Positions 8,531 through 54,372 of a stretch of DNA of 64,000 bases are shown piece by piece. The DNA is from Escherichia coli (GTDB taxonomy: Bacteria > Pseudomonadota > Gammaproteobacteria > Enterobacterales > Enterobacteriaceae). Each line of letters opens with the position of its first letter. The stretch's first letter is position 1. The position numbers and the translations under genes are program-made. Location of the stretch: assembly GCF_045037415.1 (NCBI RefSeq), contig NZ_CP173438.1; one strand, 5' to 3'. The notes below the pieces were generated by a model. The model was given only the letters and a program-made list of their open reading frames with translations. It did not search any database and was not told the origin of the DNA.

Positions 8531-9715
8531 TTAATTCAACCGCTCAATCACCATCGCAATTCCCTGGCCGCCACCAATGCATAGTGTTGCCAGCCCCAGC
8601 GTTTTATCGCGTGCCTGCATTGCATGTAATAGTGTGACCAGAATACGAGCACCACTGGCACCGATAGGATGTCCGAGCGCGATGGCCCCGCCGTTGACAT
8701 TCACTTTCTCAGGATCAAAGCCCAGGGTTTTCCCAACGGCAAGGAACTGTGCAGCAAATGCTTCATTAGCCTCAATGAGATCAATATCCGCCAGTTGCAG
8801 CCCCGCCAGTTGTAACGCTTTTTGCGTAGCAGGTACTGGCCCCATACCCATCAATGCGGGGGGCACGCCACCGCTGGCATAACTTTTAATGCGTGCCAGG
8901 GGATTCAGGCCTGCTGCCAGCGCCGCAGATTCTTCCATAATCACCAGAGCGGCAGCACCGTCGTTAATACCTGACGCGTTCCCGGCGGTGACTGTTCCTG
9001 CTTTATCGAAGGCCGGGCGCAATGCGCCTAACGCTTCAGCCGTAGAATCCGCTTTCGGGAATTCGTCTTGACTGAAGACGAAGGTTTTCTTCCGGGTGAC
9101 AACATTTACCGGGACGATTTCGGCTGTAAAAGCACCGGACTCAATTGCGGCTGCCGCTTTACGCTGTGAATGTAGCGCCAGTTCATCCTGCATTTCACGG
9201 GTAATTCCGTACTCTTTAGCCACGTTTTCGGCGGTAATCCCCATATGATAACCATGGGTGGCGCACATCAGGCCATCGCGCAGGATTACGTCATAAACCT
9301 GTCCGTCTCCAAGACGATAACCAGAGCGTGCTTTTGCATCGAGTAAGTAGGGCGCTAAACTCATATTTTCCATACCCCCCGCCACAATGCTCTGTGCCTG
9401 ACCTGCCTGAATCGCCTGTGCAGCAAGCGCCACGCTTTTCAGACCTGAACCGCACACTTTGTTGACCGTGAATCCGCACACCGTTTCAGCTAGTCCGCTT
9501 TTTAGCAGCGCCTGACGTGCCGGATTTTGCCCCAGTCCGGCTTGCAACACGTTACCCATAATCACTTCATCAACGTGTAGTGAATCGATTTTTGCACGTT
9601 CAATGGCGGCTTTAATTACTGTCGCCCCCAGGTCGATGGCGCTGGTGGAAGCGAGTGAACCGTTAAAACTACCGATAGCAGTACGTACCGCACTGACGAT
9701 GACACAATTTTTCAT
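8531..9715 (-). CDS. atoB: acetyl-CoA acetyltransferase (thiolase II)
   Basis: 394-aa ORF; N-terminus [21 protein letters not shown] and thiolase-like sequence throughout; ato operon synteny. Confidence 0.95.
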
Positions 9716-9745
9716 TTTATATTCCTTCTGTCTGTAGGGTTGCCG

Positions 9746-11068
9746 TCAGAACAGCGTTAAACCAATGACGAAAATGACGCCGGAGAAGAGCAGGGCAGTG
9801 ATGCAATAGCCCATGATGTCGCGGACACCGAGTCCGGCGATTGCCAGTGCTGGCAGCGCCCAGAACGGTTGTGCCATGTTCATCCATTGCTCGCCGTAGG
9901 CGATCGCCATTACCGATTTACCGAGATCAGCGCCCAGCGCCTGGGCTGCGGGCATCACGAACGGCCCCTGAATAACCCAGTGCCCGCCGCCAGACGGAAC
10001 GGCGAAGTTAATCAGTGCAGAACTAAAAAAGGTCATGACCGGGAAGGTGTCTTTGTTCGCAACATTGATGAAGAATTCGGTAATGAGTCCGCCCAGACCG
10101 GAGTGCTCCATCATCAGTTGGATCCCCGCGTAGAAGGGGAATTGCACCAGAATACCGGCGGTACTGCGTGCTGCCGCGCTGATAGCACGCATATAAGCCA
10201 TTGGCGTTTTATGTAGCAGCAGACCCGCAATCATAAACATCAGGTTGACGGTATTGATGGTGATGTTGAAGCCATGTTCGCTGAAGTACATCGCCAGGTA
10301 AGCGATACCGAGTGCGCCGATGATCAACGTCAGAATGCGGCTTTCTTCCAGTCGCTCGGACGGTGGAGCATCTTTCGGTAGTTGCTTTTGAAAATCAGCC
10401 TCTTCCATGAGTAGTTTCGGATCGATACTCACCACGTCAGACGGTTTTGGCATCATCATGCGGGTGATAAATGGCATCACCACAATCAACGCCACAGTGA
10501 TGAAAATATTAAAACCACTGAACAGAGTATCGCCCACCGGGATCAGCCCAGCGATATGCTCAACCGGGTTGCCCGGTGTTGCAGCCAACAGAGGCATTGA
10601 GCCAGAGAAGCCGCCACCCCAGGTGAGAAAACCAATGTAGGCGCAGGCAATGAGCAACGGATAATCAGAACCGGGTACTCGCCGGGCGACTTCACGGGCG
10701 AACATTGCACCGACAACCAAACCAAATCCCCAGTTGATGACACAAGCGACTGAACCGAAGAAAGTAACCAGCATGACGCCCTGTACGGGCGTCTTTGCGG
10801 CGGAGGCGGCAGTACGCAGCAAACTTTTCACCGGAGCGGAGCTGGCAAGGGCATGACCGGTAACGATGATAAGCGCCATCTGCATACCAAACGCCAGCAA
10901 GTTCCAGAAACCGTCACCCCACATTTTCACCATGCTGATCGGCGTTTGTGGTGTTAACCAAAGCGCGATCACGAATGTTAGCAATGTCAGCAACATGGCA
11001 AAGATCAGTGGATCGGGAAGCCACCGGCTGACAAAACGCGTCATAAAACGCGATATGCGACCAATCAT
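9746..11068 (-). CDS. atoE: short-chain fatty acid transporter
   Basis: 440-aa hydrophobic multi-pass membrane ORF between atoA and atoB. Confidence 0.9.
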   Translation of the reverse strand: MIGRISRFMTRFVSRWLPDPLIFAMLLTLLTFVIALWLTPQTPISMVKMWGDGFWNLLAFGMQMALIIVTGHALASSAPVKSLLRTAASAAKTPVQGVMLVTFFGSVACVINWGFGLVVGAMFAREVARRVPGSDYPLLIACAYIGFLTWGGGFSGSMPLLAATPGNPVEHIAGLIPVGDTLFSGFNIFITVALIVVMPFITRMMMPKPSDVVSIDPKLLMEEADFQKQLPKDAPPSERLEESRILTLIIGALGIAYLAMYFSEHGFNITINTVNLMFMIAGLLLHKTPMAYMRAISAAARSTAGILVQFPFYAGIQLMMEHSGLGGLITEFFINVANKDTFPVMTFFSSALINFAVPSGGGHWVIQGPFVMPAAQALGADLGKSVMAIAYGEQWMNMAQPFWALPALAIAGLGVRDIMGYCITALLFSGVIFVIGLTLF

Positions 11069-11715
11069 AAATCACCCCGTTGCGTATTCAGATCGGCAGC
11101 TACTTCAAACCGAGCTTCTGTTTTGGCACGCACGGTGGCTAAATCACACCCGTCGGCAATTTCGGTGAGCCACATTTTGCCGTCAATAAAACGAAAGACA
11201 GCCAGTTCAGTAACCAGCATATGCACCGCATGTTGCGCAGTGAGTGGCATGGTGCAGCGGCGCAAAATTTTTGCTGAACCATCTTTGGCGCAATGTTCCA
11301 TGGCGATGATCACTTTGCGTGACCCGGTCACCAGATCCATCGCGCCACCCATACCGGGCACCATTTTCCCAGGCACTACCCAGTTCGCGAGGTTTGCTTC
11401 TTCGTCTACTTGCAAACCGCCGAGCACGCAGGCATCAATATGACCGCCACGGATTAGCGCAAATGACATGGCGCTATCAAACATGGCTGCACCGGGTAAA
11501 ATGCCGCACGGTTGTCCGCCAGCATTCACCAGATCTGGATGCGCTGTTGTGACCGGGCCTAAACCGAGGAAGCCGTTTTCCGATTGCAGAGTGATATGAA
11601 TACCCTCCGGTAAATAATTGGCGACCATTGTGGGTAAACCGATCCCTAAGTTAACGATGTCACCATCACGAAGCTCTTGCGCCACACGGCGCGCAATACG
11701 TTGTTTCGCATCCAT
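11065..11715 (-). CDS. atoA: acetate CoA-transferase beta subunit
   Basis: 216-aa ORF; overlaps the atoE start by 4 nt; CoA-transferase family. Confidence 0.95.
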   Translation of the reverse strand: MDAKQRIARRVAQELRDGDIVNLGIGLPTMVANYLPEGIHITLQSENGFLGLGPVTTAHPDLVNAGGQPCGILPGAAMFDSAMSFALIRGGHIDACVLGGLQVDEEANLANWVVPGKMVPGMGGAMDLVTGSRKVIIAMEHCAKDGSAKILRRCTMPLTAQHAVHMLVTELAVFRFIDGKMWLTEIADGCDLATVRAKTEARFEVAADLNTQRGDL

Positions 11716-12377
11716 TATTTGCTCTCCTGTGAAACGATGATGTGGTCGATAACGGCACCAGGGGTGACAATATGGTCAGGTTGCAGCTCGCCGGTTTCGA
11801 CCAGTTCATCCGGCTCTACCAGCGTGATATCAGCCGCAAGGGCTATCAGGGGGTTAAAGTTGCGGGCGCTAAGGTGATAGGTCAGGTTGCCAAGTGTGTC
11901 GCAACGATGAGCGCGAATTAGCGCCAGGTCGGCGCGCAGCGGGCGTTCGAGCAGCCAGGTTTTACCGTCGAGTGTCAGTGTCTGTTTGCCTTCCTCTACG
12001 ACGGTGCCGACACCAGTTGGGGTGAGAAAACCACCAAGTCCAGCTCCGCCACAGCGAATTTGCTCGATTAGCGTACCTTGCGGCACCAGAACGACGTCCA
12101 TCTCACCAGATATCATGCGCCGACCTGTTTCCGGGTTGGTGCCGATATGTGAAGCAATCACTTTGCGGACTCGACCATTGACGATGAGCGGACCGATGCC
12201 GGTATCAACAAACGCGGTATCATTGGCTATCAATGTCAGGTCGCGAACACCAGATTCCAGTAATGCTTCAACCAGGCGGGATGGAGTGCCAATCCCCATA
12301 AATCCGCCCACCATGATGGTCATGCCGTCACGAAAGAAGCCGGTGGCGTCTTGTAATGTCATCAATTTTGTTTTCAT
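11715..12377 (-). CDS. atoD: acetate CoA-transferase alpha subunit
   Basis: 220-aa ORF; first gene of atoDAEB; overlaps atoA by 1 nt. Confidence 0.95.
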
Positions 12378-12421
12378 TTTTTATCCCTCTTGCATACACC
12401 GTTGTGGGTACAGTCAGGGAA

Positions 12422-12437
12422 TAGCAAGGGGAGTGCC
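12422..12437 (-). promoter_or_regulatory. Candidate sigma-54 (-24/-12) promoter of atoDAEB
   Basis: Minus strand reads TGGCAC-N5-TTGCT (plus strand AGCAA-GGGGA-GTGCCA), about 45 nt upstream of the atoD start; fits the AtoC (sigma-54 activator) regulon. Confidence 0.55.
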
Positions 12438-12520
12438 AGAATGAGATTATTGAATGTTGTTATTTAACTAATTGAATAGAAAAGGATAAATTAGATGGGG
12501 GTTCATAAGGAGAATGAGCG

Positions 12521-12563
12521 GCTATGCAGAAAATTGCGCACTGTGCAAATTTCTGCATAGCAA
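12521..12563. promoter_or_regulatory. AtoC upstream activating site (inverted repeat)
   Basis: Near-perfect palindrome GCTATGCAGAAAATTGCGCA / CTGTGCAAATTTCTGCATAGC upstream of the sigma-54 promoter, between atoC and atoD. Confidence 0.65.
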
Positions 12564-12572
12564 GTTTTGGCA

Positions 12573-13958
12573 TTATACATCCGCCGGATCGATACCGTAT
12601 TCCTGGAGTTTATACATCAATGCACGGCGACTGATGCCCAGCATTAAAGCAGTGCGGGTTCGGTTTCCTTCTTGTTGTTCCAGCACTTCCATAATGATGC
12701 GTTTTTCGACGCGTTTAATTTCCTCTTTTAAATTACGCTCACCGACAGGGGCTGTTTTTGCTTCACCAGCATTACAGACTGGCTGACGAATCTGCGGCGG
12801 AAGATCCTCAGAAAAAATGATCGGGCCTGAATTCATCACGACGGCGCGTTCAATAACGTTGGAAAGCTCTCGAATATTTCCCGGCCATGACCAGGCGGTA
12901 AGCAGTGACATTGCCATCGGATCGATGTCGATAATATCGCGCTGATTCTCACTACTGAATTTTTGCAAAAAGTGATTAGCTAACAGGGAAATATCTTCCC
13001 GGCGATCGCGCAGAGGCGGCAGTATTAAATGAATAACGTTAAGGCGATAAAAGAGATCTTCACGGAAGGTGCCTTCTTTCACCATTGCCTGCAAGTCGCG
13101 GTTGGTGGCAGCAATGACGCGGATATCAACTTTTATGGTCTGATGGCCGCCAATCCGTTCAAATTCCCGTTCCTGCAGAATGCGTAGTAATTTGGCTTGC
13201 AGTACCAGCGGCATTTCGCCAATTTCGTCGAGGAGCAGAGTACCTTCGTTGGCACGTTCAAATAATCCCTGACGCAAGGTTTGTGCACCAGTAAATGCAC
13301 CTTTTTCATGACCAAACAGTTCACTTTCGAGCAACGATTCCGGCAGTGCCGCGCAGTTGACTTTAATGAACGGCCCCTTTGCCCGCCGCGAATTGTAGTG
13401 AATCGCTCTGGCAATCAACTCTTTCCCGGTGCCGCTTTCACCGCTAATCAAGACGCTGGCCTGAGAAAGGGCAATTTTGGCGGTGTCTTTGCAGATGTCC
13501 ATCATCGCCGGGCTGTTGGTGAGAATGTGCCCCCATTGCCAGCTGGTGCTCAGTGCCTGGTGCAGATGACGGATCTCTTTTTTCATTGACTGGAGTTGTA
13601 AAGCGCGCTGAACGATTAAATTCAACTCATCGAGATCAAACGGTTTGATAACATAGTCGAAGGCTCCGCAGCGTAGTGCTTCGACGGCGGTTTCCACTTC
13701 AGCATAGGCCGTCATCAGAATAACGGGTGTCCGGGTCTCATGGCTGCGCATCTCCTTTAGTGCCTTGATGCCGTCCATCTCTGGCATGCGGATATCCATC
13801 AACACCACGTCAGGGTGAATATCGGCAAACAGGTGTAATGCTGTGCGCCCGTTGTTCGCACAATGTGTTTCGAATCCTTGTAGTGCAAAAGCGGTGCTCA
13901 GCATACGGCGAACATTATCTTCATCATCCACAATAAGGATGCGATTAATAGCAGTCAT
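12573..13958 (-). CDS. atoC: sigma-54-dependent response regulator AtoC
   Basis: 461-aa ORF; receiver domain (IVDDEDNVR...), AAA+ sigma-54 activator motifs (GESGTGKE, GAFTGA), C-terminal helix-turn-helix. Confidence 0.95.
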   Translation of the reverse strand: MTAINRILIVDDEDNVRRMLSTAFALQGFETHCANNGRTALHLFADIHPDVVLMDIRMPEMDGIKALKEMRSHETRTPVILMTAYAEVETAVEALRCGAFDYVIKPFDLDELNLIVQRALQLQSMKKEIRHLHQALSTSWQWGHILTNSPAMMDICKDTAKIALSQASVLISGESGTGKELIARAIHYNSRRAKGPFIKVNCAALPESLLESELFGHEKGAFTGAQTLRQGLFERANEGTLLLDEIGEMPLVLQAKLLRILQEREFERIGGHQTIKVDIRVIAATNRDLQAMVKEGTFREDLFYRLNVIHLILPPLRDRREDISLLANHFLQKFSSENQRDIIDIDPMAMSLLTAWSWPGNIRELSNVIERAVVMNSGPIIFSEDLPPQIRQPVCNAGEAKTAPVGERNLKEEIKRVEKRIIMEVLEQQEGNRTRTALMLGISRRALMYKLQEYGIDPADV

Positions 13959-15781
13959 ACAGTCTGATTTCCCTGCGGGTTGATCGGTAAAATAAGCGTG
14001 AAGGTTGCGCCGTAGCCCGGCAAACTGGCGACGCGAATATCACCCTGATGGGCATTAATGATGCGTTGACTTAACGCCAGACCAAGCCCGGTTCCTGAGG
14101 CTTTGGTAGTGAAAAAGGGATCGAAGATCTTTTTTTGCAGCGAGAGATCAATGCCACTGCCGTTGTCCTCTATCGAAATGGCCTGTTGCGAGTCGCTATA
14201 CTGCCAGGTTCGAATGCGAATTTTCCCTCGTGCACTGATAGCCTGGACGGCATTGATCAGGATATTCAGTAGTACCTGTTTGAGCAGTTCACGATCGGCG
14301 TTAATCGGGCTTAATTCATTATCCAGTTCGCTTATGAAGTCGACCCGCGCTTGTACGCCGGCGGTTTGTACCAGTACCAGAGTTTCTTCAACCAATGCAT
14401 TGAGGCTGACTTGTTGCCATTGACTGTGGCGTGGGCGTGAAAATTCGAGCAATTGCTGAATAACTTTGTTAATTGAATCGATTTCTTTGAGTACTACGGA
14501 CAGATATTCCTGATGTATTGGGTCACGGGTTTGTTGGCGCAAGATCTGTACATAACCACGAATAGCCGTTAGCGGATTACGTACTTCATGCGCCACGCCA
14601 GCCATCAGCTCACCCAGTGTGGCGAGGCGTTCTGCTTGCGCCATGCGGCGCTGGGTTTCTTTGCGGGCAGTTAAATCAGAGAAAATCACCAAAGCACCTA
14701 TCATTTCACCGTGCGTGTTATGAATACGACTGGTCGTGACACTGAGTTCAATGGTGCGGTCACGGCCTGGAAAACTGATCTCCAGTGCAACATGTTCGGT
14801 GCCATGTTCCAGCGTATCCAGTACGGGACTGTAGAACTGAGTATTGTCGAACAACATGGAGTAAGGCTGCCCTACCAGTTCATGACGTTGATAGCCAGTG
14901 ATGACTTCTGCTGCTGGGTTCATGGTGGTTACATCACCCTGGCGGTCAATGGCAATGACGCCATCGGCAGCGTTTTCAATAATCAGATCGTTAAGTGTTC
15001 GCGTTTCACGCAGTGCCTGGGCGAGGTTGTTAACACTCTGACTGATTTGCCCCATTTCACCGGGCAATTGTGGTAATCGAGTGGGAATATTTTGAGCCAG
15101 AGTCGAGAGGCCATCGGTGATGATATCTATATTGGCGCTCAGGCGACGGGAGAAAAGGACAATCAACAGCAGGCTTATCAGCAAACCGGCGGTGAGCACA
15201 ATGATAATCCTCACATCCATTTTCCAGGCCTGGCGGCGAATATCTTCGGTTAATTCATTGGCCCAGATATAGCCGAGGATTTCACCATTACGCTCAATGG
15301 GAATCATTGAATTCAAAATATCGCCGCGCACCTGCCTGCCTGAATAAACCAAAGGGGTATTTGTACGCATGACTTCGCGACCAGGGTGATCTGCGGCAAT
15401 GGTAACGCCCACATTATTCTGATATAGCGCTGAAGGCGCGTAGGTGATTATCGCATCCAGCGTTTTGTTGTAATAACCAGCGCCGATGCCAGGGAAGGCG
15501 TGAGTGATATTTTCGGTAATGGGGGCAAGTTCTGCATTTAATGCGCGGATACGCTCCTCACGCGGTAAGTCGATGTAGAGATCGTAGCGATTGCCTAGCG
15601 CCTGATTAAGCAGGTTGACCACGGCAGAAAGTTTTTTCTCTTTTTCAGATAAGACTGCTGAACGTCCTTCCGTTTCTACGATATAACCAATAGTAAGCGT
15701 TGGGACAATGACCATCAGGATTGCCATCAGGATCATTTGATTGCGTAAGCGGCGTGGATAAATCCACTTCATATAATGCAT
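13955..15781 (-). CDS. atoS: sensor histidine kinase AtoS
   Basis: ORF 13955..15793; likely start at 15781 (MHYMKWIYP..., 608 aa); H-box and ATPase motifs; overlaps atoC by 4 nt. Confidence 0.9.
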   Translation of the reverse strand: MHYMKWIYPRRLRNQMILMAILMVIVPTLTIGYIVETEGRSAVLSEKEKKLSAVVNLLNQALGNRYDLYIDLPREERIRALNAELAPITENITHAFPGIGAGYYNKTLDAIITYAPSALYQNNVGVTIAADHPGREVMRTNTPLVYSGRQVRGDILNSMIPIERNGEILGYIWANELTEDIRRQAWKMDVRIIIVLTAGLLISLLLIVLFSRRLSANIDIITDGLSTLAQNIPTRLPQLPGEMGQISQSVNNLAQALRETRTLNDLIIENAADGVIAIDRQGDVTTMNPAAEVITGYQRHELVGQPYSMLFDNTQFYSPVLDTLEHGTEHVALEISFPGRDRTIELSVTTSRIHNTHGEMIGALVIFSDLTARKETQRRMAQAERLATLGELMAGVAHEVRNPLTAIRGYVQILRQQTRDPIHQEYLSVVLKEIDSINKVIQQLLEFSRPRHSQWQQVSLNALVEETLVLVQTAGVQARVDFISELDNELSPINADRELLKQVLLNILINAVQAISARGKIRIRTWQYSDSQQAISIEDNGSGIDLSLQKKIFDPFFTTKASGTGLGLALSQRIINAHQGDIRVASLPGYGATFTLILPINPQGNQTV

Positions 15782-15947
15782 GCTGAAATCCACTAGTCTT
15801 GTCCGGTATATGACGATTATCAGAGGTTAAGGTGATGATTTCTCGGCGGTGTATCATATTCCAGAGAAGAGAGAACATTGCGGTAACACGCTTTTACCGC
15901 TACCTTAACCACACTCCATCGGTCACCTGAGGCGGAGCTTCGCCCCT

Positions 15948-18797
15948 TTGAAATACCTTGCTTCTTTTCGTACAACCCTGAAAGCCTCGCGCTACATGTT
16001 CAGAGCATTGGCGTTAGTGCTCTGGCTGTTGATTGCTTTTTCATCCGTTTTTTACATCGTTAATGCGTTACATCAGCGAGAATCGGAAATTCGTCAGGAA
16101 TTTAATCTGAGTTCCGATCAGGCTCAGCGCTTTATTCAACGCACCTCTGATGTGATGAAAGAGCTGAAGTACATAGCTGAAAATCGCTTATCGGCAGAAA
16201 ACGGTGTGCTTTCCCCGCGTGGACGAGAAACGCAGACGGATGTGCCTGCGTTTGAACCGCTGTTTGCTGACTCTGATTGTTCCGCAATGAGTAACACCTG
16301 GCGAGGTTCTCTGGAGTCATTGGCGTGGTTTATGCGCTACTGGCGCGATAATTTTTCTGCGGCTTACGATCTAAACCGGGTATTTTTAATCGGCAGCGAT
16401 AACCTCTGCATGGCCAATTTCGGTCTGCGTGATATGCCAGTGGAACGCGATACCGCGCTAAAAGCTTTGCATGAACGCATTAATAAATATCGAAATGCAC
16501 CACAAGATGATAGTGGCAGTAACCTCTACTGGATCAGCGAAGGTCCGCGCCCTGGCGTCGGGTATTTTTACGCCTTGACGCCAGTTTATCTGGCGAACCG
16601 GTTGCAGGCGCTTTTGGGTGTCGAGCAAACCATCCGGATGGAGAACTTTTTCTTACCTGGTACGTTGCCGATGGGGGTTACCATTCTTGATGAAAATGGT
16701 CATACCCTGATTTCGCTTACCGGACCAGAAAGCAAAATTAAGGGCGATCCTCGCTGGATGCAGGAACGCTCCTGGTTTGGCTATACGGAAGGGTTCCGGG
16801 AACTGGTGCTGAAGAAAAATCTGCCACCCTCATCGCTAAGCATCGTTTATTCAGTGCCAGTTGATAAGGTGCTGGAACGCATTCGCATGTTGATCCTTAA
16901 CGCAATTTTGCTGAATGTGCTTGCCGGAGCTGCATTGTTTACTCTCGCGCGGATGTACGAGCGGCGTATTTTCATTCCGGCGGAAAGCGACGCCCTGCGA
17001 CTGGAAGAACATGAGCAGTTTAATCGCAAGATTGTCGCCTCCGCGCCAGTGGGTATCTGCATTTTGCGTACCGCTGATGGCGTCAATATTTTAAGTAACG
17101 AACTGGCGCATACTTATCTCAATATGCTTACGCATGAGGACCGCCAACGGCTGACACAAATTATCTGTGGGCAGCAGGTCAATTTTGTTGATGTCCTGAC
17201 CAGCAACAATACCAATCTGCAAATCAGCTTCGTCCATTCGCGCTATCGTAATGAAAACGTGGCCATTTGTGTGCTGGTGGATGTTTCTTCGCGCGTGAAG
17301 ATGGAAGAGTCGTTGCAGGAGATGGCACAAGCAGCGGAACAGGCGAGCCAGTCAAAATCGATGTTCCTGGCCACCGTCAGTCATGAGCTGCGAACGCCGC
17401 TGTATGGCATTATCGGTAACCTGGATCTGTTGCAAACCAAAGAGTTACCGAAAGGCGTCGATCGTCTGGTGACGGCAATGAACAACTCTTCCAGCCTGTT
17501 GTTGAAAATTATCAGCGATATTCTCGATTTCTCGAAAATTGAATCAGAACAGTTGAAGATCGAACCGCGTGAGTTTTCACCGCGTGAAGTGATGAACCAC
17601 ATCACCGCCAACTATTTACCGCTGGTGGTACGCAAGCAGTTAGGCTTGTACTGCTTTATTGAACCGGATGTGCCAGTGGCCTTAAATGGCGACCCGATGC
17701 GTTTACAGCAGGTCATCTCCAACCTGTTGAGTAACGCCATAAAATTCACCGATACCGGCTGTATAGTTTTGCATGTTCGCGCTGATGGCGATTATCTCTC
17801 TATCCGTGTTCGCGATACCGGCGTGGGGATACCGGCGAAAGAAGTGGTGCGCTTGTTTGATCCCTTCTTCCAGGTCGGAACGGGCGTACAGCGTAACTTC
17901 CAGGGGACTGGTCTGGGTCTGGCGATTTGTGAAAAACTGATCAGCATGATGGACGGCGACATCTCGGTAGATTCAGAACCGGGAATGGGCAGCCAGTTTA
18001 CCGTGCGTATTCCGTTATACGGCGCTCAGTACCCGCAGAAAAAAGGTGTGGAAGGGTTGAGTGGTAAACGCTGCTGGCTGGCGGTCCGCAATGCGTCGCT
18101 CTGTCAGTTCCTGGAAACCAGTTTGCAGCGCAGCGGCATCGTCGTTACAACATACGAAGGGCAGGAACCGACTCCCGAAGATGTGTTAATTACTGACGAG
18201 GTAGTGAACAAAAAATGGCAGGGCAGAGCGGTAGTGACCTTCTGTCGTCGCCATATTGGTATTCCGCTGGAGAAAGCGCCAGGGGAGTGGGTACATAGTG
18301 TGGCTGCTCCGCATGAGCTACCGGCATTGTTGGCGCGTATTTATTTGATCGAGATGGAGAGCGACGATCCTGCTAACGCTCTGCCGTCGACGGACAAAGC
18401 GGTCAGCGATAATGACGATATGATGATTCTGGTCGTGGATGATCATCCGATTAACCGGCGTCTGCTGGCAGATCAGTTGGGATCGTTGGGCTATCAATGT
18501 AAAACCGCGAATGATGGCGTCGATGCGCTTAATGTACTTAACAAGAATCATATTGATATCGTGCTTAGCGACGTCAATATGCCAAATATGGATGGTTACC
18601 GCTTGACGCAACGCATTCGTCAGTTGGGACTGACGTTGCCGGTAATCGGAGTAACTGCTAATGCGTTGGCTGAAGAGAAGCAGCGGTGTCTGGAGTCCGG
18701 TATGGACAGCTGCCTGTCGAAGCCGGTAACGCTGGATGTGATAAAACAGACGCTGACGGTATATGCCGAGAGGGTCAGGAAATCGCGGGAATCGTAG
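15948..18797 (+). CDS. rcsC: hybrid sensor histidine kinase RcsC
   Basis: 949-aa ORF, TTG start; N-terminus MKYLASFRTTLK; histidine kinase plus C-terminal receiver domain (ILVVDDHPINRRL). Confidence 0.95.
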   Translation: MKYLASFRTTLKASRYMFRALALVLWLLIAFSSVFYIVNALHQRESEIRQEFNLSSDQAQRFIQRTSDVMKELKYIAENRLSAENGVLSPRGRETQTDVPAFEPLFADSDCSAMSNTWRGSLESLAWFMRYWRDNFSAAYDLNRVFLIGSDNLCMANFGLRDMPVERDTALKALHERINKYRNAPQDDSGSNLYWISEGPRPGVGYFYALTPVYLANRLQALLGVEQTIRMENFFLPGTLPMGVTILDENGHTLISLTGPESKIKGDPRWMQERSWFGYTEGFRELVLKKNLPPSSLSIVYSVPVDKVLERIRMLILNAILLNVLAGAALFTLARMYERRIFIPAESDALRLEEHEQFNRKIVASAPVGICILRTADGVNILSNELAHTYLNMLTHEDRQRLTQIICGQQVNFVDVLTSNNTNLQISFVHSRYRNENVAICVLVDVSSRVKMEESLQEMAQAAEQASQSKSMFLATVSHELRTPLYGIIGNLDLLQTKELPKGVDRLVTAMNNSSSLLLKIISDILDFSKIESEQLKIEPREFSPREVMNHITANYLPLVVRKQLGLYCFIEPDVPVALNGDPMRLQQVISNLLSNAIKFTDTGCIVLHVRADGDYLSIRVRDTGVGIPAKEVVRLFDPFFQVGTGVQRNFQGTGLGLAICEKLISMMDGDISVDSEPGMGSQFTVRIPLYGAQYPQKKGVEGLSGKRCWLAVRNASLCQFLETSLQRSGIVVTTYEGQEPTPEDVLITDEVVNKKWQGRAVVTFCRRHIGIPLEKAPGEWVHSVAAPHELPALLARIYLIEMESDDPANALPSTDKAVSDNDDMMILVVDDHPINRRLLADQLGSLGYQCKTANDGVDALNVLNKNHIDIVLSDVNMPNMDGYRLTQRIRQLGLTLPVIGVTANALAEEKQRCLESGMDSCLSKPVTLDVIKQTLTVYAERVRKSRES

Positions 18798-18995
18798 GAC
18801 GGATAAGGTGTTTATGCCGCATCTGGCATTCAGTGCAAATGCCAGATGCGACGCTGACGCGTCTTATCTGGCCTACTTTAATGTAATCTGTTGAAATAAT
18901 GGGAATCGTAGGACGGATAAGGCGTTTACGCCGCATCCGGCAATCCGTGCAAATGCCAGATAAGACACTGACGCGTCTTATCTGGCCTACAGGTG
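18786..18995. repeat. REP/BIME tandem (two ~100-bp units)
   Basis: Two near-identical units each starting GGGAATCGTAGGACGGATAAGG and containing palindromic GCCGGATG / GCCAGATAAGACGCGTCAG REP motifs; the first unit overlaps the last codons of rcsC. Confidence 0.7.
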
Positions 18996-22647: not shown

Positions 22648-22740
22648 AAAAAAAACCGGATGCGAGGCATCCGGTTGAAATAGGGGTAAACAGACATTCA
22701 GAAATGAATGACGGTAATAAATAAAGTTAATGATGATAGC
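22648..22740 (-). ncRNA. micF: MicF antisense small RNA
   Basis: Minus strand reads GCTATCATCATTAACTTTATTTATTACCGTCATTCATTTCTGAATGTCTGTTTACCCCTATTTCAACCGGATGCCTCGCATCCGGTTTTTTTT, i.e. the micF sequence with its intrinsic terminator; divergent from ompC. Confidence 0.85.
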
Positions 22741-22894
22741 GGGAGATATTCTAGTTGCGAGTGAAGGTTTTGTTTTGACATTCAGTGCTGTCAAATACTT
22801 AAGAATAAGTTATTGATTTTAACCTTGAATTAATATTGCTTGATGTTAGGTGCTTATTTTGCCATTCCGCAATAATCTTAAAAAGTTCCCTTGT

Positions 22895-54027: not shown

Positions 54028-54372
54028 GTGACTTCATTACAACTCTCAATCGTCCATCGACTGCCGCAGAACTATCGCTGGTCTGCTGGTTTCGCAGGTT
54101 CGAAGGTTGAACCGATTCCGCAAAATGGACCGTGCGGTGACAACAGCCTGGTGGCGCTTAAATTGCTTAGCCCGGATGGTGATAATGCATGGTCGGTGAT
54201 GTACAAACTAAGCCAGGCGTTAAGCGACATCGAAGTTCCATGTTCGGTGCTGGAGTGTGAAGGTGAGCCGTGCCTGTTTGTAAATCGCCAGGACGAATTT
54301 GCTGCAACATGCCGATTGAAAAATTTTGGTGTGGCAATTGCCGAACCCTTTTCAAACTACAATCCTTTTTAA
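54028..54372 (+). CDS. yejG: uncharacterised protein YejG
   Basis: 114-aa ORF, GTG start; stop lies 3 nt from the convergent yejF stop. Confidence 0.8.

Follow-up and report, generated by a model that had tools for sequence, protein, structure and literature searches.

The closest described system is the atoDAEB promoter of Escherichia coli K-12 (atoDp), which occupies the same locus as the region studied here. Promoter mutants reportedly show that K-12 atoDAEB depends on sigma-54, with acetoacetate induction lost in an rpoN mutant or when the GG or GC of the -24/-12 element is changed to TT. On the activator side, Pilalis et al. (2011; PMC3118216) list two atoD sites in their Table 5, GCTATGCAGAAATTTGCACA and GCTATGCAGAAAATTGCGCA, which are scored as AtoC-positive in vivo and were verified by ChIP and gel shift (EMSA). 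The same paper describes the two together as a 40-bp inverted palindrome, verified earlier, that governs AtoC binding as well as inducibility by acetoacetate and is the cognate high-affinity site in gel shifts. On the polymerase side, Bonocora et al. (2015; PMC4591121) place the sigma-54 ChIP-seq site OS21, CTGGCACTCCCCTTGCT, upstream of atoD, with a distance of 35 in their Table 1 and a flag marking it as EcoCyc-confirmed, and Shimada et al. (2021; PMC8743547) report an RpoN-holoenzyme genomic SELEX (gSELEX) peak in the spacer between atoC and atoD.

The window, by which we mean the whole 64-kb stretch of E. coli DNA that was analyzed (64,000 nucleotides), carries the same arrangement. Its minus strand between 12378 and 12572 is exactly the 195-bp E. 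coli atoC-atoD intergenic spacer, bounded by the atoC stop codon (TAA, 12573-12575) and the atoD ATG (12375-12377) and flanked by two minus-strand open reading frames (ORFs) of 461 aa (upstream) and 220 aa (downstream). The intergenic spacer is 100% identical in many RefSeq E. coli chromosomes, where its neighbors are annotated as atoC and atoD, and the gene order rcsC / atoS-atoC-atoD-atoA-atoE-atoB / yfaP-yfaQ is collinear with K-12 MG1655. Read in gene direction, the atoC stop codon is followed by 11 nt, a 41-bp palindrome, an 82-nt spacer, a sigma-54 element, and a 45-nt leader (Table 1). A previous sequence-only reading of this DNA had proposed a complete atoDAEB control region with the geometry of an enhancer and a sigma-54 promoter. 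Both proposals are borne out: the palindrome, the sigma-54 element, and the A+T-rich spacer are all present, and the K-12 AtoC and sigma-54 sites are matched in sequence as well as in position.

Comparison with K-12 atoDp underlines this correspondence. Both intergenic spacers are 195 bp long and differ by single nucleotides at 12 of the 195 positions, with no indel. Nine of the differences fall in the enhancer-promoter spacer, two are next to the atoC stop codon, and the last, a G-to-C change at 12419, lies past the -12 element and ahead of the start site. None touches a functional element: K-12 and the window share, letter for letter, the 41-bp palindrome, the Shine-Dalgarno sequence, the IHF-like core, and the -24/-12 element with the sigma-54 17-mer that contains it, and all distances agree. 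We conclude that 12378-12572 is almost certainly the native control region of E. coli atoDAEB, the operon for acetoacetate and short-chain fatty acid catabolism. It is a well-studied, previously described control region, present here as an allele with neutral-looking spacer polymorphisms. Our own analysis supplies the elements with their uniqueness in the window and K-12 identity, the intact genes, and the conservation pattern, while AtoC binding, sigma-54 binding, and acetoacetate inducibility come from the literature on the identical K-12 sequence.

The genes on both sides are intact. All six ato ORFs (atoS, atoC, atoD, atoA, atoE, and atoB) are full length and free of internal stops, with 1 to 6 substitutions relative to K-12. 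AtoC matches the Pfam domains Response_reg, Sigma54_activat (E = 1.8e-75), AAA_lid_14, and HTH_8, and it retains D55, H73, the Walker A motif GESGTGK (173), the GAFTGA sigma-54 contact loop (220), and the helix-turn-helix (HTH); its architecture is that of a complete NtrC-type protein. AtoS contains HAMP, PAS, HisKA, and HATPase_c domains. The mechanically called atoS ORF (13955-15793, minus strand) starts, with a GTG, 12 nt further upstream than the K-12/RefSeq annotation (15781); translation from 15781 yields 608 aa that align with K-12 AtoS over their full length. The intact short-chain fatty acid regulon claimed by the sequence-only reading is supported at the gene level, with six full-length ato ORFs and an AtoC of full bEBP architecture. 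This gene-integrity result covers the six ato genes; rpoN and ihfA/ihfB are located outside the window.

Table 1. Features of the ato locus in the window, in order of position, with the number of variable alignment columns among seven E. coli alleles
Feature	Position	Strand	Details	Variable columns
atoDAEB structural genes	8531-12377	minus		
atoB	8531-9715	minus	5 aa differences vs K-12	
atoE	9746-11068	minus	1 aa difference vs K-12	
atoA	11065-11715	minus	1 aa difference vs K-12	
atoD	11715-12377	minus	1 aa difference vs K-12; Pfam CoA_trans (CoA transferase)	
atoD 5' leader	12378-12411	minus	Shine-Dalgarno GAGGG at 12385-12389, 7 nt before ATG	
Leader as aligned among alleles	12378-12422			2/45
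Predicted start (+1)	12412	minus	12 nt downstream of the -12 GC, counted from its C; atoD ATG 35 nt further on	
Sigma-54 promoter, TGGCAC-N5-TTGCT	12423-12438	minus	TGGCACTCCCCTTGCT; GG 12437/12436 (-25/-24), GC 12425/12424 (-13/-12)	0/16
Enhancer-promoter spacer	12439-12520	minus	82 nt, 70% A+T; most variable part of the region	23/82
IHF-like core	12465-12477	minus	ATTCAATTAGTTA, one mismatch to WATCAANNNNTTR; centered near -59	1/13, in a consensus N position
AtoC enhancer (UAS)	12521-12561		41-bp palindrome, 20+1+20; arms 12521-12540 and 12542-12561, central base 12541	2/41
Half-site 2	12521-12540		plus-strand read GCTATGCAGAAAATTGCGCA	
Half-site 1	12542-12561		minus-strand read GCTATGCAGAAATTTGCACA	
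atoC	12573-13958	minus	response regulator / sigma-54 enhancer-binding protein, 461 aa; 2 aa differences vs K-12	
atoS	13955-15781	minus	sensor histidine kinase, 608 aa when read from the start annotated in K-12; 6 aa differences vs K-12	

The two arms of the palindrome are complementary at 18 of 20 pairs. In gene direction (12561 to 12521) it reads GCTATGCAGAAATTTGCACA, then G, then TGCGCAATTTTCTGCATAGC. Relative to the predicted start site it spans about -149 to -109, with its center approximately 129 bp upstream, and its half-sites lie at -184 to -165 and -163 to -144 from the atoD ATG. Both half-sites are letter-identical to the K-12 AtoC sites, suggesting that AtoC would bind the palindrome of the window in an acetoacetate-inducible manner and that induction here would depend on it. 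The sequence-only reading had recognized a near-perfect 41-bp inverted repeat but carried it 2 nt too far, to 12563; the base pairs 12562/12520 and 12563/12519 are unpaired, so the palindrome stops at 12561. A 90-aa ORF on the plus strand (12514-12786) overlaps the palindrome; it is antisense to atoC and was dismissed as a by-product of the atoC frame.

No other palindrome with arms of 20 nt reaches 18 matches anywhere in the 64-kb window, and a search with the half-sites, allowing up to 3 mismatches, recovers just the two arms (0.08 matches expected by chance). This uniqueness bears on whether the palindrome might belong to a dispersed, REP/BIME-like repeat family and lack any specific regulatory function, as REP-derived elements do occur elsewhere in the window (naRNA4 matches, 18797-18987). 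However, the window contains no second copy of the palindrome even with 3 mismatches, the palindrome has no Rfam match, and a degenerate 33-nt palindrome pattern finds a single place in 100,044 species-representative genomes, namely, the collinear orthologous ato locus of E. coli E69; beyond Escherichia the same scan gives no match. Uniqueness in the window and the single match in the genome collection effectively refute a dispersed repeat, to which we assign a probability close to nil.

An inverted repeat at this position could also function as RNA. The palindrome might act, mainly or additionally, as a hairpin at the 3' end of the atoSC mRNA, terminating or stabilizing the transcript and insulating atoDAEB from read-through, a proposal that we consider unlikely. 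Minus-strand RNA from 12580 to 12500 indeed folds into a 16-bp interrupted hairpin (-24.3 kcal/mol, z = -4.05 relative to shuffled sequences) directly past the atoC stop codon. Further, the two natural variants keep or improve the RNA pairing: the change at 12545 (C to U) leaves a G-U pair, and the one at 12533 (U to A) repairs a U-U mismatch. Any DNA palindrome folds as RNA, however, and the same variants fit symmetric protein binding equally well. Of the two parts of an intrinsic (Rho-independent) terminator for atoSC, the hairpin is present but the U run is absent, as the stem is followed by CGCUCAUUCUCC. A terminator scan finds no terminator-like site at the palindrome on the minus strand, an Rfam search finds no match at E <= 1 in 12000-13000, and the accessible portion of the supplements to the published E. 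coli 3'-end map (PMC7815308) has no entries for atoS, atoC, or atoD. AtoC binding at the DNA level, by contrast, is experimentally documented (PMC3118216). The hairpin would be at best a second role of the palindrome and not a replacement for the AtoC enhancer. Dual use of this kind, as a DNA enhancer for atoDAEB and as a 16-bp RNA hairpin that defines or stabilizes the atoSC 3' end, is itself rather doubtful. If true, it would shield the sigma-54 promoter against read-through and hold atoDAEB at a low basal level of expression.

Downstream of the enhancer, the promoter sequence in gene direction (12439 to 12423) is cTGGCACtccccTTGCT. It includes a sigma-54 element that matches the consensus at 11 of 11 positions, lies 45 nt before the atoD ATG, and is oriented toward atoD. 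The element had been correctly identified from sequence, with coordinates that were off by 1 (12422-12437 in place of 12423-12438). This is the only exact TGGCAC-N5-TTGCW match in the 64-kb window, where 0.16 would be expected by chance. When one mismatch is allowed, a second sigma-54-like match appears at 54152, but chance alone would yield approximately 4 matches of this kind, so that only the exact one carries information.

An expectation of 0.16 exact matches per 64-kb window is not overwhelming as evidence from sequence alone. The element could in principle be a chance match, with atoDAEB transcribed from an unrecognized sigma-70 promoter and AtoC acting as a conventional activator. We regard this as highly improbable on several grounds. 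The match is correctly oriented, is invariant across the seven alleles, lies approximately 100 bp from the enhancer, and would put +1 at a distance of 35 nt from the start of the only gene downstream. A consensus scan finds no sigma-70-like promoter in 12250-12750, and AtoC carries the GAFTGA loop for contact with sigma-54. The promoter 17-mer is identical to the K-12 ChIP-seq site OS21, a sequence occupied by sigma-54 both in vivo and in vitro (PMC4591121, PMC8743547). By virtue of this identity, the promoter in the window is likewise predicted to be occupied by sigma-54.

The -24/-12 convention would place the start of transcription at 12412. An AtoC DNase I footprint is said to extend from -146 to -107, a numbering that implies a +1 at approximately 12414-12415, 2 to 3 nt upstream of the predicted one. 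The predicted position agrees with the "Distance 35" given for atoD in PMC4591121.

The DNA between the enhancer and the promoter is 70% A+T, compared with 48% for the window, and its atoD-sense strand is 39% T and 30% A. Earlier described as a T-rich stretch, it is better called A+T-rich. The center of the palindrome lies 104.5 bp from the -24 GG, with 82 nt separating the two elements, so the earlier figure of about 100 bp was a fair one. A distance of approximately 10 helical turns would fit presentation of AtoC on the same face of the DNA. Within the spacer, an IHF-like core is found 70 bp from the palindrome center and approximately 35 bp from the -24 GG. Induction of atoDAEB reportedly requires IHF. 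Taken by itself, the match lacks significance, since the motif occurs in the window no more often than chance would give (63 matches, 53 expected); among the seven alleles, the core is kept inside an otherwise variable spacer.

The sequence-only reading had further proposed that the T-rich stretch could bend the DNA. The TTTT run at 12480-12483 is polymorphic among E. coli alleles and is replaced by CTTC in K-12; what is conserved in the spacer is not this run but the block ATTCAATTAGTTAAATAAC. As the T run is not conserved, bending is most likely brought about by IHF, at the IHF-like core that the alleles conserve (12465-12477), and not by the T run itself.

To describe natural variation, we aligned seven alleles: those of the window and of K-12, four more from E. 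coli genomes chosen across the range of identity, and that of strain E69, which came from the pattern scan. The two palindrome variants fall at or beside positions at which the arms already mismatch. E69 (CP089930.1; locus L003, 4320-4555) has the most divergent allele among those aligned. Its palindrome is nearer to perfect, with 19 of 20 arm pairs and the A/T mismatch repaired, and its spacer carries a 1-nt deletion that shifts the enhancer-promoter distance by one base. In E. coli CUVM53 (NZ_CP116976.1; locus L004, 2501-2720), a deletion corresponding to approximately 12290-12431 of the window runs from inside the sigma-54 element, after TGGCACTCC, into atoD, taking with it the -12 element, the leader, and the N terminus of AtoD. 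RefSeq marks this atoD as partial; CUVM53 is a predicted natural knock-out of the atoD promoter.

Across complete E. coli genomes, the control region (12300-12700) is present in 3,924 of 5,426, leaving approximately 28% without it. The spacer is unusually polymorphic, with 1,846 genomes just 90 to 95% identical over 231 bp. A second possibility, weaker than dual use of the palindrome, is that the polymorphic spacer (23 of 82 columns, plus the 1-nt indel in E69) tunes loop geometry and inducibility among E. coli lineages.

A few features elsewhere in the window were recorded alongside the ato locus. The one-mismatch sigma-54-like element, TGGCGCTTAAATTGCT, at 54152-54167 (plus strand) lies inside yejG on the sense strand. 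The text of the sigma-54 ChIP-seq paper PMC4591121 makes no mention of this yejG site, and we set it aside as a sigma-54 site given the number of such matches that chance would produce. The two Rfam matches to naRNA4, a REP-derived, nucleoid-associated RNA, are arranged in tandem at 18797-18873 and 18911-18987 (plus strand), immediately after the rcsC stop codon. Rfam matches at gathering score to the MicF sRNA, a tRNA gene, and the L25 ribosomal-protein leader, listed with 22648-22741, 45979-46052, and 49768-49793 (all minus strand), are ordinary landmarks of this chromosomal region.

Taken together, classical activation through AtoSC and sigma-54 is the best-supported mechanism for atoDAEB; no sequence feature contradicts it, and we hold it with very high confidence. 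In this mechanism, the kinase AtoS would sense acetoacetate and phosphorylate AtoC, both proteins being encoded immediately upstream of the operon. Phosphorylated AtoC, an NtrC-type AAA+ enhancer-binding protein, would then oligomerize on the palindrome (12521-12561), centered at about -129, while sigma-54 RNA polymerase waits as a closed complex on TGGCAC-N5-TTGCT (12423-12438). The A+T-rich spacer is predicted to be looped, probably with IHF bound around 12465-12477 (near -59), which would bring AtoC to the polymerase. ATP hydrolysis by AtoC would finally open the promoter, with transcription expected to begin near 12412, 35 nt before the atoD ATG.

With intact regulators, intact structural genes, and every known cis element in place, the strain carries an apparently functional AtoSC-atoDAEB system, and its catabolism of acetoacetate and short-chain fatty acids is predicted to be inducible, as in K-12. 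The significance of these findings lies mainly in annotation. Calls of ato presence and integrity should be of some use in predicting strain phenotypes, since approximately 28% of complete E. coli genomes lack the locus and a deletion has removed the promoter in at least one strain.

Beyond K-12 atoDp, the ato system resembles other promoters served by the NtrC family. NtrC-glnAp2, ZraR-zraP, and PrpR-prpBCDE share with ato a set of dyad-symmetric activator sites approximately 100 to 150 bp upstream, a -24/-12 promoter, and DNA looping; for prpBCDE, the looping is IHF-assisted according to the reference list of PMC2965739. AtoC and the NtrC family also have in common an activator built from a REC domain, an AAA+ domain with GAFTGA, and a Fis-type HTH. 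The ato system differs from these examples in its recognition sequence and in its signal, which is acetoacetate acting via AtoS. Whereas NtrC uses two separated dimer sites, ato has a single enhancer made of two abutting 20-bp half-sites, and, unlike the enhancers of the NtrC-family examples, it is located directly after the stop codon of its own activator gene.
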